Shown one piece after another: positions 596-25,720 of a DNA stretch of 50,745 nt. The notes under the pieces were generated by a model that made no database searches, had not been told where the DNA came from, and worked only from the letters and a program-made list of their open reading frames with translations. The DNA comes from Chitinophagales bacterium. GTDB lineage: Bacteria > Bacteroidota > Bacteroidia > Chitinophagales > JANQFB01. Location of the stretch: positions 1-50,745 of the forward strand of contig JANQFB010000325.1 in NCBI GenBank assembly GCA_028278085.1, given 5' to 3'. A program made the position numbers and the translations under genes. How positions within the stretch are numbered: the first letter of the stretch is position 1; each line of letters begins with the position of its first letter.

Positions 596-1978
596 TTGAA
601 ACATTTGAGATCATATAAGCACCTGTTGTATACCATAATCGTGTGTATACTTTTGTGCGGCTTGATCGAACTGGCCTTTTATGCTTTCACAGCCAAAGGT
701 CATTATAAGGTAAAACTATCGAATAGTCTGAATTACCTGGGGCATCAAAATACGCCGGTGCCGGCTTTGGAAAACCTGGATTGGCCGGAGGCCTCTGTGG
801 TTATCCGCTACCCCGACACGCATATGGATCCAATTCCATCCCAAAACCAAAACTTTCCCGATGAATTCCTGCAATCCCGAACGGTCCTCGCTACCCCCGA
901 TGATCTGAAAAGCATTCCCGGCAAGCGGGTGTTCATTGTCGGCGGCTCGGCTGCTTTTGGCTATCGCTATCATTATTCGCAAACCTTCGGATCCCTGATC
1001 TCAGAAACACGCAAGGGCGATTATACCGTGATCAACGCCGCACAGGTAGGATGGTCATCGGGAAGGCTGTTTCCCGTCCTGAAAAGGATCGTCGACCATT
1101 TCGCCCCGGCAGCCATCATCCTGTTTACCGGTAACAATGAATGGGTGCAATGGTCGCATGAAAAACCATCCGGTTTCAGGAATTCAACCCTAACCCTGCT
1201 CTCTTGGGGCAATAAAAGCTATGCCTGTTCCTATTTAATATACAAATGGATCATTGGCCGGCGGGACCAGGTCAGCGATAGCACCGGCCGGTCCGGGGAT
1301 AAATTCTTAGCTCACCAGGATCTTCTCGGATACCGGTACGCACTCCGTTATCCGCTTGTTCCGGACAATGGATTCAATCCACGGGACTGGCCACGTACCA
1401 AAGCCGATTTCCTGGCCGTCTTTAAACAAAACCTGACATCAATGATCAGATACTGTCAGGCAAAGGGCGTCTGGGTGATCCTGATGAATATTCCCTTCAA
1501 CTACAAATTATCCCCGGCCTGGAAACATCCCCAGCCCTTTTACCTGGAGGAAAAGCATAGCGCTACTGTACCCGGGATGATCACAAATGCCGCAGATCTG
1601 ATCGGGCGGGATCAAATTGCAGAAGCTGAAGCAGTGATCAGACAAGTGCTGGCCCTGGAACCGGAAATATCTATTGCTCATTACCTGTTGGCCCATATTT
1701 TAGAAAAAACAGGCCGCGATCGCGCTGCCAGGAACGCTTATGCGCAATCTCGTGAATATATGATCGGCAATTTGGGTTCCATGCTCAGTATCAATGAAAG
1801 CATCCGGAAGGTTGCGGAATCCACGGCCGTAGATTTTGTGGATATTCACCGGTCATTCGATGCCCATGCCCAACAGGCGGGAGATCCTTATCACGCGACC
1901 CTGATCCATGATGATTGTCATCCGAATGTGAAAGGCCATGAGATCATTGCCCGGGCCTTGCTACCCTACCTGGATTAA
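596..1978 (+). CDS. SGNH/GDSL-family hydrolase with N-terminal TM helix and an inserted TPR segment
   Basis: Block I GGSAAFG, NAAQVG, block III GNNE, block V DDCHPN; TPR-like segment EAEAVIRQVLALEPEISIAHYLLA. Confidence 0.75.
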   Translation: MKHLRSYKHLLYTIIVCILLCGLIELAFYAFTAKGHYKVKLSNSLNYLGHQNTPVPALENLDWPEASVVIRYPDTHMDPIPSQNQNFPDEFLQSRTVLATPDDLKSIPGKRVFIVGGSAAFGYRYHYSQTFGSLISETRKGDYTVINAAQVGWSSGRLFPVLKRIVDHFAPAAIILFTGNNEWVQWSHEKPSGFRNSTLTLLSWGNKSYACSYLIYKWIIGRRDQVSDSTGRSGDKFLAHQDLLGYRYALRYPLVPDNGFNPRDWPRTKADFLAVFKQNLTSMIRYCQAKGVWVILMNIPFNYKLSPAWKHPQPFYLEEKHSATVPGMITNAADLIGRDQIAEAEAVIRQVLALEPEISIAHYLLAHILEKTGRDRAARNAYAQSREYMIGNLGSMLSINESIRKVAESTAVDFVDIHRSFDAHAQQAGDPYHATLIHDDCHPNVKGHEIIARALLPYLD

Positions 1979-4182
1979 AGCCGGATACCCACCACACATA
2001 CATCATCGATTTGTCCCCGCTTCCATTGCCATTGATCGAGTGTGGTTTCGAGCTTGCTTTTTTGTTCTTCCGGCTCGAGAGAATGGAGCTCCCGTAACAG
2101 TTCCTTGAAGCGGCGGGAGCTGAACTTTTTATTCCGCTCTCCGCCGAACTGATCCATATAACCGTCGGAATAAAGGTAGATCATATCTCCGGGATTGCCC
2201 GCTATCCGGTGATTGGTGAAAGGTTGGCTTTGCCGGCTATGGTGGATACCGATCGGTTGGCGGTCGCCTCGTATTTCTTCCAATTCGGTGGTGTTTTTCC
2301 TGACCCTGATCAGAGGATTATAAGCCCCGGCGAATTCGACCTGGAGGGTATCCGGGTCTATCTTGCATAAGGCGATATCCATGCCATCCTTCACATTCGT
2401 TTCGGCTGGCAAGCCACCTTTGTTATTAGGATCGACGCCGCTTTGTTTCAGCGACCGGATGATACCGGCTTTCAGTTCATCCAGGATACGGGCCGGTTGC
2501 GTGATCCTTTTTTCATTGACCACCTCATTCAATAAGGAGTTACCGATCATGCTCATAAAAGCTCCCGGCACCCCATGGCCTGTGCAATCGGCTACTGCCA
2601 CGATAATAGCCTGATCTACCGAGGAGATCCAGAAAAAATCGCCGCTGACAATATCCTTGGGTCGATAGAGGATAAATGACTCCGGCAACAGCTTTTTAAA
2701 CACTTCCGGTTCGGGAAGGATAGCATTTTGTATCCGCTGCGCATAATGGATACTGGAGAGGATCTGTTCTTTCTGGTCTTCGATCTCCTTCTTCTGCAGG
2801 GCCAGCAATTTGTTGGCCTTTCTCTTTTGCTGGTATGCCAACATAATAGCGACCACTAAGGCTAATACCAGTCCGAATCCCAGGATAAAGAGGTTGCGCT
2901 GTGCTTTTTGCCGGTCGATTTCCAGGGCCTGAAGGGCTTTATCTTTCTGCAACAATTCGATCTCCTTTTCTTTTTGCGTAGTTTCGAAACGTGTTTCCAT
3001 TTCACTAAGTTGCTTGCTGGTGGTTTCATCGAACAGGCTATCCTTCATTTGGGCATGCAGATCATGGTAGGCCAAAGCTTTTTTGTAATCCTTTTTTATT
3101 TTATAGCTGGCCGCTAATCCATAATAGACATAGATCCTTAATTGGAAACTTTTTACCTTCCTGGCCAGGGAATCTGCCCGGTTAAAATAGTGGATCGCCA
3201 GATCAGGATCCCCCAGTTTATTGGAAAGATCACCCATGTTGATCAGGGATACCAATACGCCTCTTGCATCCTTCATTTGCCGTTTGATCTCGAGCGATTG
3301 GTTGAAATAATCCATCGCTTTTGAAAATTGGTCGAGCGATTCGTAGGCATTACCGATATTATTGAGCGTACCGGATACGGAACGGTGGTCTTCGAGCAAA
3401 CGGTGGATCTTTAAGGCCCGCATATAGTAAGGCAAAGCTTTTTCAGGTAGCCCCATTTGGTTGTATATACCCCCGAGATTGTTGAGCACAAAACATATTT
3501 GGTTGGTATCTTCCAGTTGGTCTTTGAAGGATAGCGCATGAAGAAAATATTCTTCGGCCCTTTCCGGTTTTTTTTGGATGGCATGCACGGTGCCGATACC
3601 GCTATAGGTGCTGACCAGGTTATAATATTCGCGGATCTCCTCGAGGATCTCCGCCGCCTTGAAATAATGTTCAAATGCTTTGGCCAGGTCTTCTTTTCTT
3701 TTATACACTTTCGCCAGGGCCAGATGGCTATTGGCGATCCCGGAAGAATCGTTCAACTCCGTTTTTAATTCATGGTACCGGATCAGACTGCCCAAGGCCT
3801 CATCATAGGCTCTTTGGGTACGGTATACCAGGCCTTGCTGATAATAGAGATCAGCGATAAGCATTTTATCTTTCGTGTTCAAAGCATGCTCCAATCCTTT
3901 TTCGACCATCCACAAGGCGGTATCAGGATTTCCGATACGGTACATGGTGGATAGCTTGAGGTAGCTGTTGGCTTTTACCTCGTCATCATCACTTTGGGCG
4001 ATCAGCCGGTATAGACTGTCGGAATTACCGAAGAGGTTTGCATGAAGGAAAATACTGGTCAGGATCAGCAGGCGTGTAACCGGCTTCCGGAGGCTTGCGT
4101 ATGGGAAAAGAGGGCTCAGCACACTTTTACCTATAAAGATAAGGTAAATTGAAAGGAAATTTTTCAGCTTGGCCATAGCCAA
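1975..4182 (-). CDS. TPR sensor + TM + PP2C/SpoIIE-family protein phosphatase (paralogue 1); true start may be further downstream
   Basis: Multiple TPRs (LNNLGGIY, LNNIGNAY), TM helix, then PKDIVSGDF, ADCTGHGVPGAFMS, DGMD, SDGYMDQFGG and DDVCV. Confidence 0.9.
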   Translation of the reverse strand: MAMAKLKNFLSIYLIFIGKSVLSPLFPYASLRKPVTRLLILTSIFLHANLFGNSDSLYRLIAQSDDDEVKANSYLKLSTMYRIGNPDTALWMVEKGLEHALNTKDKMLIADLYYQQGLVYRTQRAYDEALGSLIRYHELKTELNDSSGIANSHLALAKVYKRKEDLAKAFEHYFKAAEILEEIREYYNLVSTYSGIGTVHAIQKKPERAEEYFLHALSFKDQLEDTNQICFVLNNLGGIYNQMGLPEKALPYYMRALKIHRLLEDHRSVSGTLNNIGNAYESLDQFSKAMDYFNQSLEIKRQMKDARGVLVSLINMGDLSNKLGDPDLAIHYFNRADSLARKVKSFQLRIYVYYGLAASYKIKKDYKKALAYHDLHAQMKDSLFDETTSKQLSEMETRFETTQKEKEIELLQKDKALQALEIDRQKAQRNLFILGFGLVLALVVAIMLAYQQKRKANKLLALQKKEIEDQKEQILSSIHYAQRIQNAILPEPEVFKKLLPESFILYRPKDIVSGDFFWISSVDQAIIVAVADCTGHGVPGAFMSMIGNSLLNEVVNEKRITQPARILDELKAGIIRSLKQSGVDPNNKGGLPAETNVKDGMDIALCKIDPDTLQVEFAGAYNPLIRVRKNTTELEEIRGDRQPIGIHHSRQSQPFTNHRIAGNPGDMIYLYSDGYMDQFGGERNKKFSSRRFKELLRELHSLEPEEQKSKLETTLDQWQWKRGQIDDVCVVGIRL
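2383..2410 (-). repeat. REP-like stem-loop unit embedded in frame in PP2C paralogue 1
   Basis: Minus strand GCCAGCC-GAAAC-GAAT-GTGAA-GGATGGC; same architecture as the units at 15661-15747, 23603-23659 and 32117-32143. Confidence 0.6.
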
Positions 4183-6112: not shown

Positions 6113-9100
6113 TTATCGAACGATCACTTTATGGTATTCGGGTTGATCGTTAAGGATGACCTCCAGCAGATAGATACCTTTGGCCAGATCCTTCCCGTCG
6201 ATCTCATTTTGTCCAATGTTCAATAGCATCACCGGCGAGACCTGTTTGCCTGCCAGATCAAATAAAACAGCTTGCGGCCGGCTGGAACCTGTTATTCCTA
6301 TGCTGAACTGACCCGTATTCGGATTGGGAAATACCGTCGACCCCATTTTTGCCCGCGGGATATCCATTCCTCCGGCCTCGTAAGCCATGGTTTTCCGGGA
6401 AGCGCCGTAGGCATAGATCGCTTTGGCAATGAACACCTTTTGGGCGCAATCGGTGGTCAGGGGAGTTGCCTTGGATTGACCGTTCTTATCCGGCTTGCCG
6501 CAGTAGGCCTGGTCTTCGATATGACAAGCTTCCCAACGACCCGTTTTTCCTTTGCTAAGCTGGATGCCGGAAATCTCTTTAAACCCAAGCCGCGTTTCTT
6601 CGGTATCTTCACCCAGGAAAACCCGGTACTTGTCGGTAAACATGCCGCCGATCGTTTCCCGACCCGCCAGTTTTACCGGAACCGGACAGGAAACCGCAGT
6701 AGTAAGGCTGTTCTGACCCATACAATCTTCACAACTGCTGACCGGTATACAGGTGGAGTAATTGGTCGTGACCACCGTGACCGTGGGATTGACACCCGGT
6801 TGGCAGCTCTTCTCAATATTATGATCCGAACCGGCCAGATCCACTGCTACCGATCCACCGCCGGTTCCCCAGAAATTATGCTTGGCCAGTATTTCATTGG
6901 GCGCAATATTGCTTCCATTGTAACACAGTTCGAAAACCATGCCATAGGTGCTGAAAAATGTATTGGGGTGGATTACATTAGGTTGCCCCCGCTTGATGGC
7001 ATGTTCCTCGGCATCGATATTGAGGATAAAGTCTTCACCCGTGATCAAGGGAAGCGCAGACACCGTACTGGTAATGGTACCACATCCTTTATCGCCGACG
7101 GTCAGCATGGCGCTGAAGGCCTGGTTGTCATTATCATATGAACCCTCCAGGTCTACCCCATGTTCGACATTATCGATGATTGCTCCGCCGTTCCGCAAGA
7201 ATACCAGGGAATGACTGCCTTTCACACCGGTGATGTTGTCGTAGATCCGGCCACCATTGATATAACAGCCTGCTACATGGTCGACCTGTATGCCGTAATC
7301 GGCGTCAGTGATCAGGACATCTCCGGTTGTAACATTTGATGCATTACTGGCCTTTATCCCGGTGGTGCCACCGGAAATACTACTGTTGATCAGTGTGAAA
7401 CTGCCAAAGTTATCGCCTTTAATACCGAATGTACATCCGGTAAATTGCAGGTTAACCATGAACGTATGCAAGGGTTTATTATCCAAGTTAATTCCCTTCA
7501 CACAATTATGGATACCGGCATCGAATATTTTGGCGGTGCTGGTAAAGTTACTCAGGGTGATCCCCTCTCTCAGGTTTTCTGCTTCACCGCCGGTAAATTC
7601 AAATTTTGAAAGCCCTTCACCTAATATACCGATGCTGGCATGTTTGGGATCTGTGGACAATAAGCCTTTTAAGGTAACCTGCTCAAAAGTGGCTTGGGTA
7701 TTCTTGATGGAGAACACACTGGTATAGGCATATTCTATCTTAGCATTGCTGATCTTCACCTTGTGCCCGTCAACCGCCAGGGTAGTATAGTTCGTGATAC
7801 GCATAGCCCGCCGGCTAACGCCAAGTCCGTCGATCACGAATTCGCTGTTGTTGCCCAATTGTAGTTCATGGGAAGGTTTAAACTTAATATAGCCGTTCCC
7901 ATAAAAGGTAAGATCTACATCATCATCGGTCTTAAAGATGCCGTCCAGCTCCAAAACCGCCGAGCTGCTGGGGATACTGGCAGGCCCCAAATGAATGCCG
8001 GCGAGGGGGTTGGAATTTTTCAAATGAAGGGTTCCGTATTCCTTGACTTTCATTTTACCGCCCGGGTGTACAAATACTTCGGCACCATCTTCTATCACGA
8101 GCGTGCCAAATGCTCCAACCGTAAAAGTGGCTCCGTTCATTACCTCCAGCTTGCTGCCTGATTTCAGGGTCATGGTGCTGAACTGGCGAACTTCCATAGC
8201 GGCGCCGGGCTGCAATCGGACCAAAGCGCCCGGTTCCACATCCAGGGTGGTATGGTTGTAAAAATCGGTGAAGGTGGTTCCGTTCACCCAGTCGTTGTGC
8301 ACCGCCAGGGTATGACGATTGGGTGTTCCGGTTTTATCTACCAACACAAAACTACCGGATTGAACATCCATCGCCGGATCGCTCAGGCCGTTGGTATGCG
8401 GATTCAGGATCAGCTCACCGGTTAAGCGAGTATCTTCCTTGACCTGGTGATCATCGAATAAAACACGGATGAGCACAAACTCCTCAGGATCCGCTTGGGG
8501 TCCGCCATACCCGATGATCTCGATAGAAACACCATTGAGGTAAATGGGCTCCAGCTTTTCGGTGTTTTTGTTGTAATCCTGGTAGTTGAAGATGCCGGGA
8601 TTACTGCCCAGACCGATGCGCTGGAATTCAGGTAAGGCAGCATTTAAGCCGAGCTGGCCATATACAAAGTTGCCATCGACCATATGAACGGCCATTTGCT
8701 CCTGGGCGCCAACGGTATTCGCCCCCTCGTGTACATCTATACTGTTGTTGCCATCAAGATCCCATCTTACGGAGGTAATTTCATTATGGCCGCCATATGG
8801 ATTCGATGCCCCTCTGGCAAAATCATAGACGGGGTTTCCATACCATTCGGGTGGGGTGGTGAAGGTAGCCGAGGGGGTAAAATCGAAGTTACCCTGGCCA
8901 TAGAAGCAACGGATGCCGTTCGAATAATTGACATTGAGGGCCTGAACAGGTGTATTTCGGGTGCTTTCCATATTGTCGACGATACCGACGACCCCACGAG
9001 GAGCGTCAGGGATGGTATTGCCGGCGCCATCGTTGACAAATCCTGACCGGTTATCGAATGCGGATAGCCCGCGCCGGTATTCCAGCCACAAATGCTGTTT

Positions 9101-10102
9101 ATTCACGTGTGGGATCTTTATCCTGATCACATCCCCTGTAGTTACAAAATCCCCGATAGCATATACATTATTGTCCGAAGCATCTTCCAGGTCGTGGGTA
9201 ATCTCGATCCAGCCGTTGTACCAACGTTCCCAGGCATTGGCAGAATAAAACACCTGCGGACCGGTAGCCATCATTCCCCATCCCGAGTTGGTATAAAAAT
9301 GCTTGCCACTCACATTATTGGAGCTGTTATAATGCGGGGCGCTATACAGGTCATGACCAAATTCATGCAAAAACATTCTCCTGGAATTGATGATATTACC
9401 CATTCCGGCAGGTAGTGTAAATCCGGAAGCACCGGAAACCACGTATCCGCTGGAAAAAGTATAGCCTGTAATACCGGCATAACCGCCCCCACCAAAAGCG
9501 CTACCGGTAAGGCCGGTGGTACCGGTTGGATTCGGTCCGTTATTGTCCCAACGCCAAATGATCGCCACGAAGTCGATCTGATTATCCGGTGAGGAAACCG
9601 AATTATCGAAAGCATAGTTCGGATTATTGGTGCGGGTATCGTTCGGGCTGAAATCATAGCCCGGGTAATTGGCTTCGATGTAGTCGAATACCTTGGTGGT
9701 ATAGGTCGACCAGGGATTGAAGGTGTTGTTATCAGCCGTTGTTGCCAGTACATTGACCCTTTCCGGAAAAATATCTCCGACAAGCCGGAACGGCTGACCG
9801 CTGGGCAACGACATTTGGTAGTAAAAGTTAGACAGGGAGTGGTCCGTTGCCGTCGAGGAAAAATCGCTGAAATTGTCGTAAAACAGATCATCGACATACG
9901 AAGGAAAGGGATCACTATGCTCCCAATTTTGATTAGGCGCCGTGTTGGCATCATTCGTGAATCCTGCATAGATCACCAGTACTCTTACATCCCCCTTGGG
10001 GGTCATTACGTTTCCATTGGGTGTGTACTGCGCCAGACCTTGCTGACTACTCAATAGCCAGACGATACTGCTGATCACCCAAAGCATAGAAATTCTTTTC
10101 AT
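6113..10102 (-). CDS. Secreted zinc metalloprotease (M6/immune inhibitor A-like) with beta-helix-like region and T9SS C-terminal domain
   Basis: Signal peptide MKRISMLW...; HEFGH zinc motif followed by GWGMM; SANAWER; C-terminal VFPNPNTG...LAKGIYLL T9SS sorting signal. Confidence 0.8.
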   Translation of the reverse strand: MKRISMLWVISSIVWLLSSQQGLAQYTPNGNVMTPKGDVRVLVIYAGFTNDANTAPNQNWEHSDPFPSYVDDLFYDNFSDFSSTATDHSLSNFYYQMSLPSGQPFRLVGDIFPERVNVLATTADNNTFNPWSTYTTKVFDYIEANYPGYDFSPNDTRTNNPNYAFDNSVSSPDNQIDFVAIIWRWDNNGPNPTGTTGLTGSAFGGGGYAGITGYTFSSGYVVSGASGFTLPAGMGNIINSRRMFLHEFGHDLYSAPHYNSSNNVSGKHFYTNSGWGMMATGPQVFYSANAWERWYNGWIEITHDLEDASDNNVYAIGDFVTTGDVIRIKIPHVNKQHLWLEYRRGLSAFDNRSGFVNDGAGNTIPDAPRGVVGIVDNMESTRNTPVQALNVNYSNGIRCFYGQGNFDFTPSATFTTPPEWYGNPVYDFARGASNPYGGHNEITSVRWDLDGNNSIDVHEGANTVGAQEQMAVHMVDGNFVYGQLGLNAALPEFQRIGLGSNPGIFNYQDYNKNTEKLEPIYLNGVSIEIIGYGGPQADPEEFVLIRVLFDDHQVKEDTRLTGELILNPHTNGLSDPAMDVQSGSFVLVDKTGTPNRHTLAVHNDWVNGTTFTDFYNHTTLDVEPGALVRLQPGAAMEVRQFSTMTLKSGSKLEVMNGATFTVGAFGTLVIEDGAEVFVHPGGKMKVKEYGTLHLKNSNPLAGIHLGPASIPSSSAVLELDGIFKTDDDVDLTFYGNGYIKFKPSHELQLGNNSEFVIDGLGVSRRAMRITNYTTLAVDGHKVKISNAKIEYAYTSVFSIKNTQATFEQVTLKGLLSTDPKHASIGILGEGLSKFEFTGGEAENLREGITLSNFTSTAKIFDAGIHNCVKGINLDNKPLHTFMVNLQFTGCTFGIKGDNFGSFTLINSSISGGTTGIKASNASNVTTGDVLITDADYGIQVDHVAGCYINGGRIYDNITGVKGSHSLVFLRNGGAIIDNVEHGVDLEGSYDNDNQAFSAMLTVGDKGCGTITSTVSALPLITGEDFILNIDAEEHAIKRGQPNVIHPNTFFSTYGMVFELCYNGSNIAPNEILAKHNFWGTGGGSVAVDLAGSDHNIEKSCQPGVNPTVTVVTTNYSTCIPVSSCEDCMGQNSLTTAVSCPVPVKLAGRETIGGMFTDKYRVFLGEDTEETRLGFKEISGIQLSKGKTGRWEACHIEDQAYCGKPDKNGQSKATPLTTDCAQKVFIAKAIYAYGASRKTMAYEAGGMDIPRAKMGSTVFPNPNTGQFSIGITGSSRPQAVLFDLAGKQVSPVMLLNIGQNEIDGKDLAKGIYLLEVILNDQPEYHKVIVR

Positions 10103-10192
10103 GTTCAATCAAGTTTTTTCGTTAACAAATAGCTGCCGGAATCAGTGAGGCAGCCGTAAAACCACTGGTTCCTGATCCCGGTCTATAAGCAT

Positions 10193-10221
10193 TATCGTGC
10201 AGCCCCATGATCTATAACCAA
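10193..10221 (-). promoter_or_regulatory. Candidate ECF-sigma promoter upstream of the metalloprotease
   Basis: Minus strand TTGGTTATAGATC-N11-CGATA; near-identical motif at 14915-14944. Confidence 0.55.
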
Positions 10222-10311
10222 ACCGGATAACTTTTTTTTACCATAACCAAAAAATTACAAGTAAGCCCGGAAGGGGGAAGGGAGATCAGTCCGTTTATAA
10301 GCCGATGATTA

Positions 10312-11043
10312 TCAATCGAAGTAGGTCGATAGAATAGCTGCGGCCTCGGTCTGACGGAAGCTGCCCTTTTGATGGGCCAGCTTTTCAAAATAAGATCTGG
10401 ATCGGGCCATTTGTTTTGATTCATAGTGGACAATGGCTAGGTACCACCAGCTTTGTTCGTGGTAAGGATTTTGGGATCGTAAAACCGCATTCAGGTGTTC
10501 GATAGCTTTGGGGTAGTCGGCTTCTTCCTTGGCTATATGGCACATCCCGCTATAGAAGTCGGCCAGGTATTGGATCATGTGAAAATCAGCAGTTACCCTG
10601 GCTATGGCCGTAAGCGCTTCATCATACCGGCCGCTATTGTAGAGATCCATGGCGGATTGCCATTCCTGAAGGGTTTCGGGTCCTGTTGTCCGGGGCAGGG
10701 GAGTGCTTTCATAGGGTTGGAAATAAACTTCTGCCAGGGCAGGAGGCTGCTGGAATTCGCTGATCAACCACCAGGAACCGGGGATCAGGAGGATAAGCGC
10801 TATGGCGGCTGCCCACCACCAACGTTTGAAGGGTGAAGGGGAGGGAAAGAGATCCTGACGAATGTTTTCCAGGTCTTTTTTCATCGCCAGACGGCCATCC
10901 TGCCTCACAATTTCGGCCGCCACTGCTTCTGCAAAGGCCTCGTCGTTGGCCATACGTTGTTCAAAAGCGTTTCTTTCCGCTTCGCTGAACCGGTTTTCCA
11001 GGAATCTCGTAACGCTTCTGTTTATGTCGTCGTAATTACTCAT
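10312..11043 (-). CDS. Putative anti-sigma factor (N-terminal anti-sigma domain, one TM helix, periplasmic TPR)
   Basis: FLENRFSEAERNAFEQRMANDEAFAEAV N-domain; TM WWWAAAIALILLIPGSWWLI; TPR-like C-terminus; overlaps the stop of the sigma gene. Confidence 0.75.
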   Translation of the reverse strand: MSNYDDINRSVTRFLENRFSEAERNAFEQRMANDEAFAEAVAAEIVRQDGRLAMKKDLENIRQDLFPSPSPFKRWWWAAAIALILLIPGSWWLISEFQQPPALAEVYFQPYESTPLPRTTGPETLQEWQSAMDLYNSGRYDEALTAIARVTADFHMIQYLADFYSGMCHIAKEEADYPKAIEHLNAVLRSQNPYHEQSWWYLAIVHYESKQMARSRSYFEKLAHQKGSFRQTEAAAILSTYFD

Positions 11044-11620
11044 GTTTAAGAAGGTTTCGGATCGTGGCTTTTGCTTTCACCAACTCCCTTAAGGCTTTCA
11101 GGCACCGGGTTTTCTTATTGCGAACAATTTGTTCGTTTTTATAACCCATTTCCAGGTACAGTTTTTGAACAGGGATATTGTCAAAAATGGCCATCCGTAA
11201 CAGTCGCCGGCAATCGGCCTTTAGTTGATCCATAAGGCCCGCAAGCAGGTCTGTTTTCTCGGCACTGACGATCACCGGTAAAGGTTCGGTAATGGTATGC
11301 TCCACGGTGATGGATTCTTTAAACTTCGTTTCTGCCTTTTTCCTGCGCAACTGATCGATCCACTTATTCCGGCAAACGGCATAGATATAGGTTTTGATAG
11401 AGGCGGTTTGGATAAAATTGCCTGCTCTTACTTTTTCATAAAACACAATAACCGATTCCTGGAAAATGTCGTGTGCATCATCTTCGGAACCATTATTCTG
11501 CAAGACCAGGTTCCGGATAAGGTTGAAATACTCCCGGTAGATATACCTCAAGCCTTTGTTGCAATCCTCCGCGTTACCTTTGAGCAGGCCCAGGATCTTA
11601 TGATCGTTGCTAGTAGCCAC
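11036..11620 (-). CDS. ECF (sigma-70 group 4) RNA polymerase sigma factor
   Basis: Region 2 DDAHDIFQESVIVFY...IKTYIYAVCRNKWIDQLRR; region 4 LKADCRRLL...VRNKKTRCLKALRE; 194 aa. Confidence 0.9.
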   Translation of the reverse strand: MATSNDHKILGLLKGNAEDCNKGLRYIYREYFNLIRNLVLQNNGSEDDAHDIFQESVIVFYEKVRAGNFIQTASIKTYIYAVCRNKWIDQLRRKKAETKFKESITVEHTITEPLPVIVSAEKTDLLAGLMDQLKADCRRLLRMAIFDNIPVQKLYLEMGYKNEQIVRNKKTRCLKALRELVKAKATIRNLLKHE

Positions 11621-11666
11621 CTTGTCCGTTTGTCCTCCTGTTTCGGATTTTACCCACTTTTAATTT

Positions 11667-14600
11667 TCAAATCATTTGATACCGTTTGAGCCAAAACCGT
11701 CTGCCTAACAGGAAACCTAAGGAACCCAGGATAAAAAAGGCCCCTGCAAAGTAGCCGTAGCTCCTCCAACTATTGCCAAATTGCACCGGCTCCCGGTTGC
11801 CGATCACCACGAAATTAGCCCAGTAGAATGGGTGGGCTTTCACGGGATCGGCATGGGATAAAAAAGTTTTTTTGGCCTGGCTGAGCGCCAGGGATTTATT
11901 TTCTTCCCGGCTGATCCCTTCAAAAAATGTTTGCATCAATCGGGCGCTGCTCCGGTCCTCCGCCTGCCAGAGGCTCATGACCACGGCGGGACAACCGGCA
12001 TATCGAAAAGCCCGGGCCAAACTCATGGGGCCTTCACCCCCGATCAGCTTCCCATAACCGGTATTACAGGCGCTGAGTACTACCAGGTCGGCATCGAGAT
12101 CCATATTATATAATTCATAAACATTGAGGTATCCGTCATTTAGCGTGTCATGGGTTTGGGTGAATAGTAGTTTGGAAAGCATGGGTTCTTCATCGTCAGT
12201 CAGGGCATGCATAGCCAGGTGCAATACCCGGTAATCCCCGGCCATGGCCTTGAAATTCGCTTCACTGGCATCCGGGCCCAGATAGGCCATCCCACCCAAT
12301 AAACGATTGACACTTTTTACTTCCACCGAGTTTTTTAACAAGGGCCGGGCATTACTCCGGAATTGGGCAAATTTATCCAATGCAGAAGCGGCAGCCAAAG
12401 CCCCCATATCATAGGTGGGTGCAAAACCGGCATAGCTTTTTGCAGCCCGGTTTGCAGTGGTGGGATATCGATCCAGCCAGGTGGAATAGGCATAATGGAT
12501 CTGTTTTTCGTGGAGGAGGTAGGGCAATTTCCGGTAGTCGTTTTCTCCGGGAGCCGGCGCTGCCGTCAGCAAGGCTTCAAAAGGGATGAGATTAAGTGTA
12601 TTGTCGGGAATAAGGGTGATTGCCGCAATATCGGTTAAGATCTTCCGGCTCTCTTGCGGGAACAACCGGTCATATAAATAAGTTGCTGCAGTAATATAGT
12701 TTTCAAAGGATTGCCGGGGATCCAGGAGGCGTTGTGCAGGATCGGATATGCTTGACCGCAGCATGGCCACGTGCTCATGAAATTTTTCACCGATAGTATC
12801 CCGGTAAAAAATGACCTGAGAAGGGCTTAGTGTCCAAACAAACAAGGACGTGTCGCCCAGGAAATAAGCCATTATCGCCTCTCCGGAAGACAACTGTTGC
12901 TGTAGGGTGGACAAATCTGAACCGTCTACCTGGAATTGCAATTGAAAATATTTAGGGTAGTTTTCCCGGATATGATTTTGCAGCGCATAGTACTGCGATT
13001 TGGCGGAAAACAGCCGGTCGCTGCTTGCGGAGCGTTCTAGGGTATCATTTTTTTCATGGGCCTCCCTGACCTGCCGGGTATAGATAGCCTGTGCAGACCT
13101 TAACTGTTTTTCCCGTTGAAGGATACTGTCGGGAACTCCGGCAAACTGAAAGCTCCCGGCGGCCGCAATGGCCTTTTTCAACTGAAAAGATCTGCTGCGT
13201 TCCATCATTTGGAAGGATTCGGCCAGGTATCGCGGTTCATGCGTCTGTTGGTACAATTCAAAGGTGGTAGCCAGGGTCCCTTCGAATGTTTGTTGTATCT
13301 GCCGGTAAACGGTCTTATTGTTGGCATAATTGTCCATGTCCCTGCGAAGGGTGTCGACCAGGTCTGCCGCTCGTTTGTAGGTATGGCGGGCATGTACCAG
13401 GTAATGCGGATGATCATTTTTACTCATGAAATGCAAAACTTCCGCCTTACGATTGAGGATGTTGAGCAGGAAATTAACATTGGACACAACATTCAATGAA
13501 GGATTATCCCGGTAGTCGTTGCTTTCAAACCCCGGTACCAGCTTTCGGATCAATGTCTGATAAGTGGCTAAAGCGGAATCGGGGTAGCCTGCCTGCCGGA
13601 GATCTTTGCCCATATACAGGGCATTTGTAAAATATTCGCTGACATAGAAGTCGCTGAATTGGGTGAGCCGGCAAGCCTTCCGGAAATGCCTGATACTTGA
13701 GGTATATGCCTTTTTGGCCGAATAATATTTACCCCAACCTTTATGAGCAATACTGTGCGCAGGGTGATCGGGCGCCAAAAAACTCAGCAAAACCTGTTCG
13801 CCTTTTCGGGTATAATAATAGCAGGAATCAAAGGCACCGGCCAAAAGGAGTAGGTTGGCATAGTTGAGGTAGGACTTGCCTGTTTGTGGATTGCTTTCAC
13901 CGTGATGCAGCAAGGTGATCCTTAATTCCTCACGGGTATATGCCAGGCTTTTCCCGGGCTTATCGGGTTCGGAACTGGCATAAGACAGGTTTCGATAAAT
14001 ATCGATCAGGCTTTTGTGATCCGGACCGTGCCGCTGGATGGCCAGCTTCAGGCTTTTGAGGCCGTATTCGATATTTTTTTCCGTATTGCCCAGGCTCGAA
14101 AAAATGATCGATAGGACATTATAGACCATAGCCAGCTTTCTATCCTTTTCTTCCCTGCTCTGATTGGCCAGGAATAGGGCCGTGTCCGCATATGCCTGGG
14201 ATGCTTTGATCAGGTGCAGCGACAAATAGGACATGGATATTTGTCCGTATGATTTAATGATCGAAAAGTCTGTTTCCGCTAACCTGGCTTTTTTTACCCG
14301 GAGGGATCGTTTTTCGGTTTGAATAGACTTCCACCTGTTTCCATCATTTAGATACGCTCTTCTAAGGGTTTCATAGGTACTGATCAGGGATGGATGATCG
14401 TTGCCTTTGAGGCTTATGATCCGGTCAATCGCTTCCTGCAGGTCGGAAATGGCCAGTTTGGGAAACTTATTCCGGTGCTGAAATTTCCCCCTGGCGATAT
14501 AAAAGTTGATCCACAAAGTATCGTCGGCCGGCAGTTTTGAAGTGAGCGTCGTTAACAGTTGCCGGTAGATCAGGCCGGCTTCTTCATAGGATTTTTGCCG

Positions 14601-14849
14601 GCTATGGGATAAGGCGGAAAGATGCCTGGCCGAAATGTAGCGTTTCAGATAAGCATTTTTTTGGAACAGCTCCCCAGCTTCTTTAGCCCGGGCAATAGCA
14701 TTTTTATAGTCCTTGCTCCGATAGGCTTTGTTAGCGGCTTGCATCATTGCCTCGGCGCGTAGGGAATCTCCTTTGGAGGCATTTTCACCCTCAACAGGTA
14801 TCGTTAACAGACTATATGCCACCAAGATGAGTTGCCACTTGTATTTCAT
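11667..14849 (-). CDS. TPR-CHAT (caspase-like, clan CD) protease with signal peptide and C-terminal membrane anchor
   Basis: N-terminal signal peptide (ATG 14849); long TPR array; CHAT motifs IPDNTLNLIPFEAL, LHLAMH (catalytic His), LVVLSACNTG (catalytic Cys), HPFYWANF; C-terminal TM followed by basic residues. Confidence 0.9.
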   Translation of the reverse strand: MKYKWQLILVAYSLLTIPVEGENASKGDSLRAEAMMQAANKAYRSKDYKNAIARAKEAGELFQKNAYLKRYISARHLSALSHSRQKSYEEAGLIYRQLLTTLTSKLPADDTLWINFYIARGKFQHRNKFPKLAISDLQEAIDRIISLKGNDHPSLISTYETLRRAYLNDGNRWKSIQTEKRSLRVKKARLAETDFSIIKSYGQISMSYLSLHLIKASQAYADTALFLANQSREEKDRKLAMVYNVLSIIFSSLGNTEKNIEYGLKSLKLAIQRHGPDHKSLIDIYRNLSYASSEPDKPGKSLAYTREELRITLLHHGESNPQTGKSYLNYANLLLLAGAFDSCYYYTRKGEQVLLSFLAPDHPAHSIAHKGWGKYYSAKKAYTSSIRHFRKACRLTQFSDFYVSEYFTNALYMGKDLRQAGYPDSALATYQTLIRKLVPGFESNDYRDNPSLNVVSNVNFLLNILNRKAEVLHFMSKNDHPHYLVHARHTYKRAADLVDTLRRDMDNYANNKTVYRQIQQTFEGTLATTFELYQQTHEPRYLAESFQMMERSRSFQLKKAIAAAGSFQFAGVPDSILQREKQLRSAQAIYTRQVREAHEKNDTLERSASSDRLFSAKSQYYALQNHIRENYPKYFQLQFQVDGSDLSTLQQQLSSGEAIMAYFLGDTSLFVWTLSPSQVIFYRDTIGEKFHEHVAMLRSSISDPAQRLLDPRQSFENYITAATYLYDRLFPQESRKILTDIAAITLIPDNTLNLIPFEALLTAAPAPGENDYRKLPYLLHEKQIHYAYSTWLDRYPTTANRAAKSYAGFAPTYDMGALAAASALDKFAQFRSNARPLLKNSVEVKSVNRLLGGMAYLGPDASEANFKAMAGDYRVLHLAMHALTDDEEPMLSKLLFTQTHDTLNDGYLNVYELYNMDLDADLVVLSACNTGYGKLIGGEGPMSLARAFRYAGCPAVVMSLWQAEDRSSARLMQTFFEGISREENKSLALSQAKKTFLSHADPVKAHPFYWANFVVIGNREPVQFGNSWRSYGYFAGAFFILGSLGFLLGRRFWLKRYQMI

Positions 14850-14914
14850 CGGTTGGAAGTATTTGATCAACCTGTTTTCCCTTTTTTCACGGAAGGTTCC
14901 GGCATAACTCTATG

Positions 14915-14944
14915 TATCGGATGAGCCTGTCGATTTATAACCAA
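14915..14944 (-). promoter_or_regulatory. Candidate ECF-sigma promoter upstream of the CHAT-sigma-antisigma operon
   Basis: Minus strand TTGGTTATAAATC-N12-CGATA; matches the motif at 10193-10221. Confidence 0.55.
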
Positions 14945-15173
14945 TTTCTGACATTATTTTTTCAGTTTTTTTCGATAGTCCCGTACACCCATCACCGCTC
15001 AGGGATGATCCCGGTAGCTCCAATGTGATTGGATCCCCTGGAAATTGAACTAACCGATGCTGAAACAGTTAGCGCGGTGAAGTAAAATGTATGGAAAGTT
15101 AAAGAAGAAAGTTATATTTCATTAATTGTATGATGATATTTCCATCACCGATACATCGGCTGCTTAGGTTGTA

Positions 15174-17357
15174 TCAGACCCGCACACCTATGACACAAAC
15201 ATCGTCGACCTGTTCCATTTCCTTTTTCCAGGACTCGAAAGCCTGTTGAAGGATATTGCGCTGCTCCTGCATGGATCGATCCTGGTTAACCAGCAACAGC
15301 TCTCTGAAACGCCGGGGGGTGTATTTTCGAACTACCTGACCGGGCGGTAAGTCTTCCCGTCCGCCGAATTGATCCACGAAACCGTCCGTGAACATAAATA
15401 AGCTATCACCGCTTTGAAGTTGAAGCGTATGCCGGGTAAAGGGCTTTTCTTTAATAAACACGCCTATGGGTTGGCGATCCGCCTTTATCTCAACCAAGGT
15501 ATTTTGACCTTCTTTATCCGGTAAATAAGAGCTACCTGCGTCCACACTTGCCATGGTTTCCCGGTGACTGCCTTTCCTGATCAGGTAGAGCGGGTTATAG
15601 GCGCCCGAATATTCCAATTCATTAGTAGCTTTATTCCATGCACACAGGGATATATCCATTCCATCTTTTACTGTCATTTCGGAAGGCAAAGCCTTCTTTA
15701 CCGAAGTTTCAGATGGCTTGCCCTCCGAAACTTCAGTGGAGGAGGGCGAGCCGTCCTTTAGGCTATCAGCAGCATCCGATTGGCCCAAAGCTCTTTTAAT
15801 GCCCGACCGGAGGTGATTTAGGATCTCATTCGATTGTGTTATTCCTTTTTCAATCACGATCTCATTCAGCAGGCTTGTACCGATCATGCTCATAAATGCA
15901 CCCGGTACACCATGTCCTGTACAGTCGGCAACCACCCATATTACTTTGTTGTCGGCAGTTTCGTGCAGCCAATAGAAATCACCGCTGACCACATCCTTGG
16001 GTTGGTAAAGAATAAAATGGTTATCATCATTGCCTTCAAATGCGCCTTGAAATGCCTCGGTGGAGGGTAAGATGGCTTCCTGTATTTTCTGTGCGTAATT
16101 AATACTGTCGGTGATATGTTTGTTCTTTTCATCTACCAGGGCCTTTTGTGATGCGATCACATTCTTTTGCTTCCTTGCTACACTGAAGCGATTGAAGAGG
16201 AAGACCGAAAAAATGATCACCAAAAGCAAGCCCCCGCCTGCCGAAAGGATGATCAATTCCTGCCTTTTCACCTTTTCCCGGTGAGCCAGCTCCTGTTTTT
16301 CTTTCTCTGCCTTTAATAGCGCTTCTTTCTTTTCGAATTCATAGCCCATTTGTTGTTTGATGGCTTCCTTCTGACTTTTCTCATTATTGATGCTGTCGCG
16401 CAGGGTAATATAGGTGTCATATTGCTGTAAGGCCTCCTGCCATAAGGATTGTTTTTTATACACCTGGTAATAGCTTTTGGCGCAGGTCATGAGGTCTTCG
16501 GTATATCGGAGCCTTTCTGCCCATATCATTGCGCTGTCGGTGTACAGTTTTGCCAGCGCCGGACTTCCCTTGGAAAGATAGATATTGGCCATGGAATAAT
16601 AAATATTGGAATGGAAAACGAAATAACCGGTGGCATCATAATAGGATTTGGCACTTTTGTAATAGCGGATGGCGGAATCTGGCAATTGTGCGTATTTGGC
16701 ATCGACGGCTTTACAGAATTGCTCCGAACCGCGTCCGAAATCATCTCCTTGCCGGGCGTAATAGTGTGCGGCTTTTTTCAGCGCTACCGATGCCTCCGGA
16801 AGCTTTTTTATGGAATGATACAAGCTCGATAAGTTCCAGTATCGATCTCCCAGGACGGCGATCTCTTCCCTCGCTTCCGAGATTTGGATACTTTTTTCAT
16901 AATAGGTCAGCGCTTCCTCAATATTTCCCAAAGTTTTGTACAGGATGGCTATACTGTTCAAAATAGAGGCTTCGGAAGATTTGTTTTGGATGTTCTCTGC
17001 AATTCTCAGGGCTTCAAATGACAAATTCAGGGCCGTGGAAATGTCTCCCTTGCTGCTGTATACCGATCCCAGCATATGAATGACCGAGGAAAAGACATCA
17101 TTGTAAAAATTACTTTGTTCCGTGGTCAGGTTTGGCCGACTGATCCTGCTTTTCAACAGATCCATCATGGACAAGCCGGTAGTCATGGCCGAATCCAGGT
17201 TGTTGTTCATGAATACCACCATCTGTGCTTCCAGGCCTTTTATGGCTAACGAGTCCTCCCGAAAATCATTATTTTTTACCGGATCGGTCGTATCCGCCAG
17301 TGGAGCTTGGAGAATAAGGAGGTTGAACAGGATGAGATAAAACCAGTTGATCTTCAT
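15174..17357 (-). CDS. TPR sensor + TM + PP2C/SpoIIE-family phosphatase (paralogue 2)
   Basis: Signal peptide, TPRs, TM, PKDVVSGDF, ADCTGHGVPGAFMS, DGMD, TDGFVDQFGG, DDVCV. Confidence 0.9.
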   Translation of the reverse strand: MKINWFYLILFNLLILQAPLADTTDPVKNNDFREDSLAIKGLEAQMVVFMNNNLDSAMTTGLSMMDLLKSRISRPNLTTEQSNFYNDVFSSVIHMLGSVYSSKGDISTALNLSFEALRIAENIQNKSSEASILNSIAILYKTLGNIEEALTYYEKSIQISEAREEIAVLGDRYWNLSSLYHSIKKLPEASVALKKAAHYYARQGDDFGRGSEQFCKAVDAKYAQLPDSAIRYYKSAKSYYDATGYFVFHSNIYYSMANIYLSKGSPALAKLYTDSAMIWAERLRYTEDLMTCAKSYYQVYKKQSLWQEALQQYDTYITLRDSINNEKSQKEAIKQQMGYEFEKKEALLKAEKEKQELAHREKVKRQELIILSAGGGLLLVIIFSVFLFNRFSVARKQKNVIASQKALVDEKNKHITDSINYAQKIQEAILPSTEAFQGAFEGNDDNHFILYQPKDVVSGDFYWLHETADNKVIWVVADCTGHGVPGAFMSMIGTSLLNEIVIEKGITQSNEILNHLRSGIKRALGQSDAADSLKDGSPSSTEVSEGKPSETSVKKALPSEMTVKDGMDISLCAWNKATNELEYSGAYNPLYLIRKGSHRETMASVDAGSSYLPDKEGQNTLVEIKADRQPIGVFIKEKPFTRHTLQLQSGDSLFMFTDGFVDQFGGREDLPPGQVVRKYTPRRFRELLLVNQDRSMQEQRNILQQAFESWKKEMEQVDDVCVIGVRV
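15661..15747. repeat. Three REP-like stem-loop units embedded in frame in PP2C paralogue 2
   Basis: Units at 15661-15686 and 15691-15717 (minus strand; the latter reads GCCATCT-GAAAC-TTCG-GTAAA-GAAGGC) and 15720-15747 (plus strand GCCCTCC-GAAAC-TTCA-GTGGA-GGAGGGC). Confidence 0.65.
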
Positions 17358-17715: not shown

Positions 17716-19458
17716 ATGCTACTATCCCGGAACCAGATCACTACCCTGCTCGGATTTATTCGCGCACTGATCGGCTATAACCGGTGGCAGGTGCTCCAGT
17801 CTTTTGTGCTGCTGATCTTCATGGGGATCTCACAGGGCGTAAGTTTACTGCTGCTCATCCCCTTTTTGGCGCTGGCCGGCGTAACGGAAACGGATCAATC
17901 CGATTCCGGCCTCGCTGCCCGGGTAAAAACCGTCTTTGAACATACCGGGTTTGAGCTGAGCCTGATCAATGTATTACTGGCTTATATTTTTATTTTCAGT
18001 TGCTACGCCTTGACCCTGTATTGGCAAAGCATCGTCAACACACAATTGATACAGGGTTTTACCAGGCAATTGCGGAATAAGTTGCACCAGGCCTTTATCG
18101 AGGCCAAATGGCTGTTTATTACCCAAATCCGAACGGCTGATGTGGCCAATTTGTTGGTGAAAGAAACCGGGAAAACCGGATCCAGCACTCAGCTTTTGAT
18201 CCGGCTAATTACACAGTTCATTTTAGCGCTTGTTCATATAGGGTTAGCATTGGTATTATCCTGGCAGCTAACATTGATGGCCCTTGCCGGGATCCTTGTG
18301 CTGATCCTCATACAGCGGTCCATTATGCGCGCGGCTTATGAAAGCGGCGAAGGAAGCTATTTGAACCATAAAGTCCTTTTTTCGATGATCAGCGAGCATT
18401 TGAACGGATTAAAGCTGGTTAAGGGCTATGGCTCGGAGGAGCGACATCACCGGCAGTATAACGAGATCACTAAAAGAGTTAAAGATCATGCCAACCGTTT
18501 TCAATATTCCGGAGCCAGGTCCAAACTTGTCTTTGACATTGGAGGGGTCTTGTTGATCAGCGCATTTTTTTATGCGGCATTGGTATTTTGGAAGATCCCG
18601 GTGATCGAATTATTGTTGATCGTATACATCTTTGCCCGGTTGCTGCCTCGATTCTCCACGATGATGACCATGTACAATGGTTTATTGAATAATATGCCTT
18701 CCTTTGATGCCATCGAGGATATGTGGGTCCGGTTCCGCGAGAACCGGGAAAATATCTCACAAGCCGTTCCGGAACCACTGGCTTGCAAAAAGGAGATCCT
18801 CCTGGAGGGTGTCTCTTTCCGCTACGAAGCCGGTCAGCCCATCCTTACCGGGATCGACTTGAAGATACCTGCCAATCAAACGATTGCCCTCACCGGGCCT
18901 TCCGGATCCGGTAAAACCACTTTGTCAGACCTGATCATGGGATTGTTACAACCGGATCAGGGTTCGATCAAAGTTGATGGAACGGATATTAGTGGCTCCG
19001 CTGGCTGGCGGCAGGCGATCGGTTATGTGCCCCAGGATGGTTTCCTGTTTCATGATACGATCAGGGCCAACCTGCTTTGGGCAAATCCCCAAGCCACGAC
19101 CGAAGCGCTGTGGGAAGCCCTGGAAAATGCCTCTGCCCGATCCTTTGTCGAGCAATTGAAAGATGGGATCGACACGGTAGTTGGCGATAAAGGCGTCAGG
19201 CTCTCCGGGGGGGAGCGACAGCGAATTGCTTTAGCCCGGGCGCTGGTACGAAAGCCCACGCTGCTGGTGCTGGATGAAGCGACCAGTAATCTGGATGATC
19301 AAAACGAGACCCATATCCGTAAAGCCATCCGAGATCTACACCGGAAAATGACCATTCTACTCATTGCCCACCGGTCAACGTTGATAGATGATGCCGATCA
19401 AACGGTTGTGCTGGAACAAGGCAGGGTGAAGGAAATCGTAGGTTCTTACACCCTTTGA
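17716..19458 (+). CDS. ABC exporter, fused permease + ATP-binding domain (MsbA/peptide-exporter type)
   Basis: About six TM helices; Walker A GPSGSGKT, signature LSGGERQR, Walker B LVLDEAT, H-loop IAHR. Confidence 0.9.
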   Translation: MLLSRNQITTLLGFIRALIGYNRWQVLQSFVLLIFMGISQGVSLLLLIPFLALAGVTETDQSDSGLAARVKTVFEHTGFELSLINVLLAYIFIFSCYALTLYWQSIVNTQLIQGFTRQLRNKLHQAFIEAKWLFITQIRTADVANLLVKETGKTGSSTQLLIRLITQFILALVHIGLALVLSWQLTLMALAGILVLILIQRSIMRAAYESGEGSYLNHKVLFSMISEHLNGLKLVKGYGSEERHHRQYNEITKRVKDHANRFQYSGARSKLVFDIGGVLLISAFFYAALVFWKIPVIELLLIVYIFARLLPRFSTMMTMYNGLLNNMPSFDAIEDMWVRFRENRENISQAVPEPLACKKEILLEGVSFRYEAGQPILTGIDLKIPANQTIALTGPSGSGKTTLSDLIMGLLQPDQGSIKVDGTDISGSAGWRQAIGYVPQDGFLFHDTIRANLLWANPQATTEALWEALENASARSFVEQLKDGIDTVVGDKGVRLSGGERQRIALARALVRKPTLLVLDEATSNLDDQNETHIRKAIRDLHRKMTILLIAHRSTLIDDADQTVVLEQGRVKEIVGSYTL

Positions 19459-25716: not shown

Positions 25717-25720
25717 CAGG

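Follow-up and report, generated by a model that had tools for sequence, protein, structure and literature searches.

We analysed a 50,745-nucleotide stretch of DNA from a Chitinophagales bacterium (assembly GCA_028278085.1, contig JANQFB010000325.1, positions 1 to 50,745; hereafter the window), and in it a locus whose genes encode a protein with a CHAT (caspase-like) domain, a sigma factor of the extracytoplasmic function (ECF) type, a probable anti-sigma factor and a cargo protein of the type IX secretion system (T9SS). A first-pass annotation made from the letters of the DNA had described four co-oriented genes at this locus, and all four lie where it had put them, on the minus strand from 6113 to 14943. 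In the direction of transcription they are the CHAT gene (11667..14849, encoding 1060 aa from the ATG at 14849, with an alternative TTG start at 14870 that adds 7 aa), the ECF-type sigma factor gene (11036..11620, 194 aa), the anti-sigma-like gene (10312..11043, 243 aa), whose start and the sigma stop share an overlap of 8 bases, and the T9SS cargo gene (6113..10102, 1329 aa). Two promoter-like sites accompany them on the same strand. Site P1 (14915..14943) is composed of TGGTTATA, 16 bases and CGATA and stands 66 bases upstream of the CHAT ATG; site P2 (10193..10220) is composed of TGGTTATA, 15 bases and CGATA and stands 91 bases upstream of the ATG of the T9SS gene. All features of these proteins given below are on the minus strand of the window.

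As judged by family score, His-Cys dyad and modelled fold, the CHAT protein has the TPR-CHAT architecture of the separase/craspase type. It matches the Pfam CHAT family at E 7e-55 (186.9 bits, cut-off 24) and TPR_12 at E 8e-16, and TPR_10 is matched as well. An AlphaFold2 model built on a 27-row alignment reached a predicted local distance difference test score (pLDDT) of 87.4 and a predicted template modelling score (pTM) of 0.81. At the N-terminus lies a signal-peptide-like hydrophobic stretch (about residues 1-20, 14790..14849), seen by sequence inspection and hydropathy and modelled as a helix of low pLDDT. A TPR/helical-repeat array follows (about residues 23-640, 12930..14783), matched by TPR_12 and TPR_10 in Pfam and all-helical in the model. 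The CHAT domain (11796..12686) contains His881 (codon 12207-12209) and Cys928 (codon 12066-12068), numbered from the ATG, which are invariant in 27 of 27 aligned CHAT homologues. About 20 residues separate the end of the conserved domain from a hydrophobic segment, residues 1031-1049 (11703..11759), which hydropathy predicts to be a C-terminal transmembrane anchor and which is followed by a basic tail. The signal-like N-terminus, repeat array, dyad and anchor named in the first-pass annotation are thus borne out by Pfam, alignment and hydropathy. In a Foldseek search the best PDB matches of the model were Csx29 (8eey_B, E 6e-15), separase (E 1e-14) and DdvA (8rw5 at E 3e-11 and 8rot_A at 4.5e-11); a sequence search of the PDB with the same protein gave 0 matches. 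The intact dyad and the matching fold suggest that the protein is catalytically competent.

The 194-aa protein is, by its family matches, an ECF (group 4) sigma factor with regions 2 and 4 only. TIGR02937 matches residues 24-179 of 194 with 57.2 bits (cut-off 42.9) and Sigma70_r2 with 36.7 bits (cut-off 24). The score for TIGR02985, the Bacteroidetes type, is 54.6 bits, which is under that model's cut-off of 126.4. A sequence search of the PDB found no relatives of this sigma at E 0.001 or better.

The 243-aa protein is probably an anti-sigma factor, and we call it anti-sigma-like. Hydropathy predicts a single hydrophobic segment at residues 75-94 (10762-10821), and Pfam places TPR matches at 160-226 within the putative periplasmic TPR domain (10315-10668). 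Just outside the membrane is a conserved LY/F..Y motif, and 12-20 residues past it 26 of 27 members of the family have a basic residue, which in the window's protein is the juxtamembrane Arg118 (codon 10690-10692). The identification is supported by four lines of evidence: the coupling of this gene to the sigma gene, the two being adjacent on one strand in all trios of CHAT, sigma and anti-sigma-like genes; a HxxxCxxC zinc-type motif, positioned as expected, in two of the seven paralogues of this genome (C554, L084:3063-3863, plus strand; C200, L085:850-1623, minus strand); a model of the first 75 residues as three helices; and a structural search of this N-domain (VIA, 48,161 representative chains) that placed the PupR cytoplasmic domain first (Z 6.0, root-mean-square deviation 2.1 A over 55 of 55 residues), with RskA in third and RsiW in fourth place. 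The other five paralogues, the window's included, are without HxxxCxxC, and the N-domain of the window's protein has no His/Cys motif. A PDB sequence search with the anti-sigma profile returned TPR proteins and nothing else.

Hydropathy and the positive-inside rule are the sole basis for the topology of both membrane proteins. The signal-like N-terminus of the CHAT protein, together with its C-terminal transmembrane segment and basic tail, suggests a location in the periplasm. These features and the single transmembrane segment of the anti-sigma-like protein were present in 12 of 12 trios inspected. The predicted topology agrees with the earlier proposal that the CHAT domain and the TPR domain of the anti-sigma share one compartment.

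The three genes form a conserved module. We collected 79 loci matched by the CHAT protein in a collection with one genome per species. Among the closest of these with enough flanking sequence, the CHAT gene adjoins an ECF sigma gene and a gene for a TPR protein of 218-280 aa in 11 of 11, in orders that include the same-strand arrangement of the window as well as divergent and convergent ones. A tail with a hydrophobic segment is common to the CHAT proteins of 26 related Bacteroidota loci, and hidden Markov models (HMMs) of the sigma and anti-sigma found both partners within 5.4 kb in 22 of these 26; of the remaining four, three begin no more than 300 bases from where a contig ends, and the fourth has a CHAT fragment alone. 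The window's own genome (6.1 Mb in 590 contigs) encodes ten CHAT paralogues of 27-30% identity, seven of them in complete trios, which we designate C21 (the window), C169, C589, C42, C165, C554 and C200. The other three have no sigma or anti-sigma partner (C579, L086:5662-8547, minus strand; two in tandem on C135, L087:11-6273, plus strand), and they stop at the end of the CHAT domain without a transmembrane tail. Single in-frame stops occur within the search matches of these partnerless genes. The functional link between CHAT, sigma and anti-sigma that the first-pass annotation had drawn is upheld by a trio that persists while gene orientations change and that recurs seven times in one genome. 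That the genes are chance neighbours with no common function is very improbable in the light of the same two observations, adjacency across families in differing orientations and seven-fold recurrence. The first-pass annotation had expected the arrangement to be common in Bacteroidota; the trio is found in 22 of 26 related loci, and the T9SS gene falls outside the conserved set.

Two Saprospiraceae trios (L011:7812-9299 and L012:7572-9029) encode short CHAT proteins of 485-495 aa that comprise a signal sequence, a CHAT domain and a transmembrane tail, without a TPR array. These loci still adjoin sigma and anti-sigma genes, and in addition genes for a PAS histidine kinase and a LuxR-type response regulator.

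The first-pass annotation had suggested co-folding CHAT with the periplasmic domain of the anti-sigma. We ran this as a controlled complex prediction of CHAT residues 420-1040 with anti-sigma residues 97-243, using a 27-row alignment for each, three runs and three controls. The pair scored 0.67 (runs 0.67, 0.68 and 0.65), and the best of the three controls reached 0.07. The runs share at least 80% of their contacts, and the partner has a pLDDT of 86. In calibration, 116 of 157 solved complexes attained this mark, as did 2 of 215 mismatched pairs, figures that are roughly valid here, where our own alignments were used. To our knowledge, no structure of such a complex has been solved that the predictor could have memorised. 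The result supports direct binding of the periplasmic domain of the anti-sigma to the CHAT domain.

We then compared pairwise distances among the seven paralogous trios, a small set, although one in which species history cannot confound since all belong to one genome. Distances of the CHAT C-terminal part correlate with those of the anti-sigma (r 0.58, a value reached by 29 of 5000 permutations), and sigma distances correlate less strongly with those of the anti-sigma (r 0.35, 354 of 5000).

The promoter-like sites provide a possible link from the trio to the T9SS gene. The site that had been noted at 10193-10221 exists, and it has a twin at 14915-14943; TGGTTATA followed by 15 or 16 bases and CGATA occurs in the window just at P1 and P2, with 0 matches expected. 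Genome-wide, the motif has 7 matches, compared with a mean of 0.6 (maximum 4) over 40 shuffled-motif controls. Four of the matches were taken as chance: those at C58, C282 and C381, which lie inside long open reading frames (ORFs), and that at C55, which lies inside an opposite-strand LytTR gene. A third intergenic match (C587:15340-15366, plus strand, equal to L100:2341-2367) has a 14-base spacer and is 277 bases upstream of the gene for a T9SS subtilase of 1189 aa with Peptidase_S8 and Por_Secre_tail domains, possibly a further member of the regulon.

The C165 paralogue has a motif pair of its own, GGTTACC, 16 bases and TACTAA, within one divergent intergenic region of 161 bases (8693-8721, minus strand, and 8765-8793, plus strand; the coordinates are the same in L083), and these are 2 of just 3 matches in the genome. 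One copy faces the sigma and anti-sigma genes; the other points towards an operon in which a T9SS cargo gene is joined by the CHAT gene. The plus-strand copy runs right up to the position where the longest ORF of the sigma gene begins, and the true start must then be downstream or the mRNA nearly leaderless. At the other paralogous trios a regular expression for the window motif found none, and a gapped-word screen gave noise except at C165. Site P1 is probably a promoter through which the CHAT-sigma-anti-sigma operon regulates itself, and in two modules the presence of a private bipartite motif before the module's own operon and before a T9SS gene fits autoregulated ECF promoters.

The 1329-aa protein is, by its family matches, a T9SS cargo with a type A C-terminal sorting domain (6116-6334; Por_Secre_tail 34 bits, cut-off 27; TIGR04183 36.6 bits, cut-off 23). 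It is laid out as a signal peptide, an M6-like N-domain with the HExxH-type motif HEFGH (residues 246-250, 9353-9367), a beta-helix-like middle part and the sorting domain. Membership of an M6-like peptidase family is suggested by the nearest Atlas cluster (score 0.98), 27% of whose members carry Peptidase_M6; the M6 model TIGR03296 itself gives 20.3 bits, well under its cut-off of 110.8, and Reprolysin_3 gives 20.5 bits against a cut-off of 22.4. A PDB sequence search with this protein matched the sorting domain alone. T9SS cargo genes adjoin three of the seven trios of the genome (window, C165 and C554). Since Por_Secre_tail matches number at least 150 in the genome (150 scored among 395 candidates), this adjacency is weak evidence that such proteins are the output. 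Because tblastn with the T9SS protein found no match in any of the 79 related loci, we place its gene outside the conserved module. The earlier proposal of a secreted protease at the end of the cascade thus keeps the motif common to the operon and the T9SS gene in its favour, and loses the T9SS gene as a conserved component (0 of 79 loci).

Several known systems resemble this locus in part. The first-pass annotation had taken Craspase as its precedent, and the analogy was correctly stated (PMC10028731). In this type III-E CRISPR (clustered regularly interspaced short palindromic repeats) system, composed of Cas7-11/Csx29, Csx30 and CASP-sigma, a TPR-CHAT protease cuts the inhibitor of an ECF-like sigma (PMC10028731). 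The window shares with it the TPR-CHAT protease, with Csx29 the best structural match of our model, and the notion that the inhibitor of a sigma is cut. Unlike Craspase, which is cytoplasmic, activated by RNA via Cas7-11 and acts on soluble Csx30 (PMC10028731), the proteins here are predicted to be exported or membrane-bound. Neither Cas7-11/gRAMP nor Csx30 families, nor any other Cas or CRISPR-associated family, was matched among the window genes scanned against Pfam, a scan that did not include a search for CRISPR arrays; PADLOC gave 0 matches for the four proteins.

The closest precedent, rather than Craspase, is DdvA/DdvS of Myxococcus xanthus, in which an ECF sigma is under the control of an anti-sigma that crosses the membrane once and has three helices in its cytoplasmic domain (PMC11506125). 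DdvA is this anti-sigma fused to a periplasmic TPR-CHAT, and its CHAT domain has been proposed, without proof, as a site-1 protease ahead of RseP (PMC11506125). Its authors report such fused proteins from Myxococcota and one Comamonas alone (PMC11506125). An ECF sigma, a single-pass anti-sigma (a probable one in the window) and a TPR-CHAT of the separase/craspase type with a His-Cys dyad are common to DdvA/DdvS and the window (PMC11506125). The differences are of arrangement and of target. DdvA joins ZAS domain, transmembrane segment, scaffold and TPR-CHAT in one chain (PMC11506125), whereas here the anti-sigma and the TPR-CHAT are encoded by two genes with the sigma gene between them; the CHAT protein comes with a signal sequence and a C-terminal anchor of its own, and a small TPR domain is all that the anti-sigma has of such repeats. 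DdvA has a CHCC zinc centre in its cytoplasmic domain (PMC11506125) and the window's anti-sigma is without a zinc motif. Finally, DdvS controls an island of CRISPR and a cyclic oligonucleotide-based antiphage signalling system (CBASS) (PMC11506125), while the linked target here is a T9SS protease-like gene. In the related Bacteroidota loci inspected, the layout of anti-sigma domain, transmembrane segment and TPR-CHAT in one chain was not seen, and all were split.

Two further comparisons concern the proteolytic pathway and the sigma factor. In classical regulated intramembrane proteolysis (RIP), DegS/RseP acting on RseA, a site-1 cut in the periplasm precedes that of an M50 site-2 protease (summarised in PMC11506125). 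The probable single-pass anti-sigma and an M50 gene in this genome are in line with that pathway; unlike its serine site-1 protease, which the cell shares, the site-1 protease here would be a dedicated cysteine protease of clan CD, encoded with each sigma/anti-sigma pair. In the ECF54 group, confined to Actinobacteria, ECF sigma genes are conserved next to TPR-bearing CHAT proteins, and the group is described without an anti-sigma and with subtilase and carboxypeptidase-regulatory-like neighbours (PMC7826278, supplement). The window resembles ECF54 in having a CHAT protein with TPRs beside an ECF sigma and differs in the presence of an anti-sigma-like gene. In the portions of the ECF classification 2.0 that were accessible, the main text does not mention CHAT, and the supplement (through ECF295) names it for ECF54 alone and for no Bacteroidetes group (PMC7826278). 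Full-text searches, whose coverage leaves out subscription-only papers, returned DdvA and CRISPR papers alone and no paper on the split Bacteroidota module. The first-pass statement that no mechanistic description was known therefore stands for the split form, and has to be amended for the idea of CHAT as a site-1 protease, which is already in print for DdvA (PMC11506125).

Taken together, these observations lead us to hypothesize a three-component switch from envelope to gene, a split version of the DdvA proposal in which CHAT would cut the anti-sigma to free the sigma. We consider the mechanism plausible overall and give this reading a probability of roughly 45%. The CHAT protein would be exported, with its TPR array and caspase-like domain in the periplasm and its C-terminal anchor at the inner membrane. 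The three-helix cytoplasmic domain of the anti-sigma would hold the ECF sigma, while its juxtamembrane segment and small TPR domain would face the periplasm. In a first step, the TPR domain of the anti-sigma is predicted to dock on the CHAT domain. The large TPR array would then sense a signal, and CHAT would cut the juxtamembrane segment of the anti-sigma, with Arg118 as the candidate P1 residue (in the protease sense, as distinct from promoter-like site P1). Third, by analogy with the established RIP pathway, an RseP-like site-2 protease would cut the membrane stub and free the sigma; the genome has an RseP-like M50 gene (191.7 bits). Lastly, the shared motif suggests that the sigma may act at both sites, transcribing from P1 the operon that encodes it and from P2 the gene for the M6-like T9SS protease. 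Seven such channels may run in parallel in this genome.

A number of findings weigh against cleavage of the anti-sigma by CHAT, or against single links in that chain. In the DdvA precedent, mutants of the catalytic dyad were without phenotype and autocleavage was not seen under the conditions tested (PMC11506125). For the anti-sigma identity, Z values of 5-6 are common among helical bundles, and the top match of the N-domain, PupR, is under Z 8; Foldseek with the N-domain gave no match under E 1; and zf-HC2, the Pfam anti-sigma model, has no match to the window's protein and matches 4 of 27 family members weakly, with a best E of 0.009. Among the seven paralogues, CHAT and sigma distances are uncorrelated (r 0.09, 1918 of 5000 permutations). 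The promoter motif is documented for this genome alone; the 40 relatives considered are related to it at the level of the order at best, and the top CHAT match beyond the genome has 32-33% identity.

The geometry of the predicted complex belongs to the same group of findings. The contacts of least error join three TPR loops of the anti-sigma (157-160, 191-197 and 227-229) with CHAT residues 708-712, 770-773 and 1001-1006, and not with the catalytic residues. A complex of this kind could form without cleavage of the anti-sigma. CHAT might be inhibited in a securin-like manner, the TPR domain of the anti-sigma keeping it inactive until a signal releases it to act on other periplasmic substrates, or CHAT might be a co-sensor, its ligand-bound TPR array reshaping an anti-sigma that housekeeping proteases then degrade. 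An invariant CHAT dyad implies that some proteolysis is selected for and does not fix the substrate, and the T9SS cargo genes beside three trios could be read in the same sense, although the number of Por_Secre_tail matches in the genome makes that adjacency weak. Set against an interaction without cleavage, the interface also includes CHAT 962 and 964-966 and anti-sigma residues 112, 114-117, 120-122 and 125. The former belong to the loop 962-966, which lies beside the catalytic Cys and comes after the invariant Trp961 of a conserved SLW strand; the latter form a stretch, 112-125, that surrounds Arg118, so that the interface covers the juxtamembrane segment at the conserved Arg as well as the loop beside the Cys. 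In caspases the equivalent loop, after the SWR strand, lines the S1 pocket. At residue 965 of CHAT, 25 of 27 homologues have Asp or Glu, and its co-variation with the basic residue of the anti-sigma comes down to a single exception pair (L020), too few to count. The Arg118 segment was placed beside the 962-966 loop by elimination, without coordinates, and its position there is to be taken as inferred, which is a further point on the side of no cleavage. Separase is held by securin, as is also mentioned in PMC11506125, and this provides a precedent for the inhibitory form. On this evidence we regard binding without cleavage as rather doubtful.

The distribution of the two families bears on a different possibility, that CHAT is an output of the sigma, a co-transcribed member of its regulon, and that the anti-sigma senses its own signal through its TPR domain, with proteases other than CHAT processing it. 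In 301 evenly sampled Bacteroidota genomes searched with the CHAT C-terminal part and the anti-sigma profile, the former was matched in 133 and the latter in 183, so that the anti-sigma family is the commoner of the two. At least 36 of 70 best anti-sigma matches, among the matches listed, have a CHAT match within 10 kb, which supports the linkage of the genes. Some strong anti-sigma matches lack a CHAT on the contig or in the genome (G225:C1, G209 and G190), and a sigma/anti-sigma pair can therefore exist without a neighbouring CHAT. Anti-sigma matches without a nearby CHAT speak for CHAT as an output, as do its place at the head of the operon that follows P1 in the window and, in C165, the motif copy before the T9SS-CHAT operon. 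A mere output would however not account for a complex prediction that passes its controls, nor for the co-variation of CHAT and anti-sigma among the paralogues of one genome. The anchor of CHAT, moreover, goes with the TPR-type anti-sigma: 26 of 26 Bacteroidota CHATs are anchored, and those of Acidobacteriota and Verrucomicrobia beside a non-TPR anti-sigma-like protein are unanchored. CHAT as an output is thus unlikely, and cleavage of the anti-sigma by CHAT is the reading we carry forward.

The loci of Acidobacteriota and Verrucomicrobia found with the CHAT domain encode CHAT proteins with a signal-like N-terminus and without a C-terminal anchor. In 18 of 53 of them a protein of 263-355 aa is encoded directly upstream of CHAT on the same strand, with a related N-domain, one transmembrane segment and a beta-rich, non-TPR periplasmic part; a weak zf-HC2 match was found in 5 of 12. 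The 12 loci inspected have an ORF of 160-218 aa before this gene, for which Pfam made a sigma call in 0 of 12, and the sigma HMM gave a weak match in 4 loci, one of which (L031) is among the 12. This three-gene operon (L030-L068; for example L031:1608-6656 and L033:4493-9008) seems to be a remote variant of the trio described above, and CHAT proteins thus pair with anti-sigma-like proteins in several phyla and in differing forms.

From these forms one may tentatively generalize that periplasmic TPR-CHATs are a general and hitherto unrecognised class of dedicated site-1 proteases for ECF anti-sigmas, each docking on its own anti-sigma, with a cut that follows a conserved basic residue immediately outside the membrane, a generalization that we hold to be possible and less likely to be true than false. 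The class would comprise a split, anchored form with a TPR-type anti-sigma (Bacteroidota), a split, unanchored form with a beta-domain anti-sigma-like protein (Acidobacteriota and Verrucomicrobia) and a fused form (Myxococcota). Large genomes would then multiply the module, with seven private input channels in this one, some of them driving T9SS-secreted enzymes.

The activation mechanism is known for few of the many ECF groups. Of anti-sigmas that include a CHAT domain, DdvA alone has been studied, and its key step could not be tested, for want of the signal and with protease and substrate in one chain. In the split module the protease and its presumed substrate are two proteins, which opens binding and cleavage to direct assay in vitro, given a specified catalytic Cys and a candidate cleavage residue. 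If CHAT does cut the anti-sigma, a caspase-family enzyme would join the proteases that start regulated intramembrane proteolysis; hundreds of unannotated Bacteroidota gene trios would be explained, and orthogonal sensor/sigma/promoter units would become available. What is new here is the seven-fold paralogy, the two promoter-like pairs that tie modules to T9SS genes, the controlled prediction of binding with a candidate cleavage segment, and the co-variation within one genome.

Envelope sensors based on TPRs, of several output types, cluster in this genome. Three sensor phosphatases are encoded in the window, all on the minus strand (1975-4182, 15174-17357 and 23206-25362), and two of them flank the four-gene locus. 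Each has a periplasmic TPR array, one transmembrane segment and a SpoIIE/PP2C domain, in the manner of SiaA. A fourth SiaA-like sensor phosphatase adjoins the C165 trio (L083:10322-12670, minus strand), and the C42 trio adjoins SiaC and two DUF6272 genes (L082:8868-10685). A gene for a small exported peptide was also sought, and no convincing ORF was present in 10109-10311, in 14850-15173 or in the 900-base gap of the C42 paralogue.

Elsewhere in the window, just past the upstream SpoIIE sensor, the plus strand of 17716-20782 carries a HepA/MsbA-like ATP-binding cassette (ABC) exporter gene followed by a gene for a Por_Secre_tail protein (19508-20782). The stretch from 24000 to 32000 has a GC content of 0.36-0.39, compared with 0.47-0.50 elsewhere; it begins with a tyrosine integrase gene (25933-27189, plus strand), contains ORFs without Pfam matches and is probably an integrated element. 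From 40185 to 50743, on the plus strand, lies a division and cell-wall cluster with mraW, a penicillin-binding protein (PBP) gene, murE, mraY, murD, ftsW and murG.

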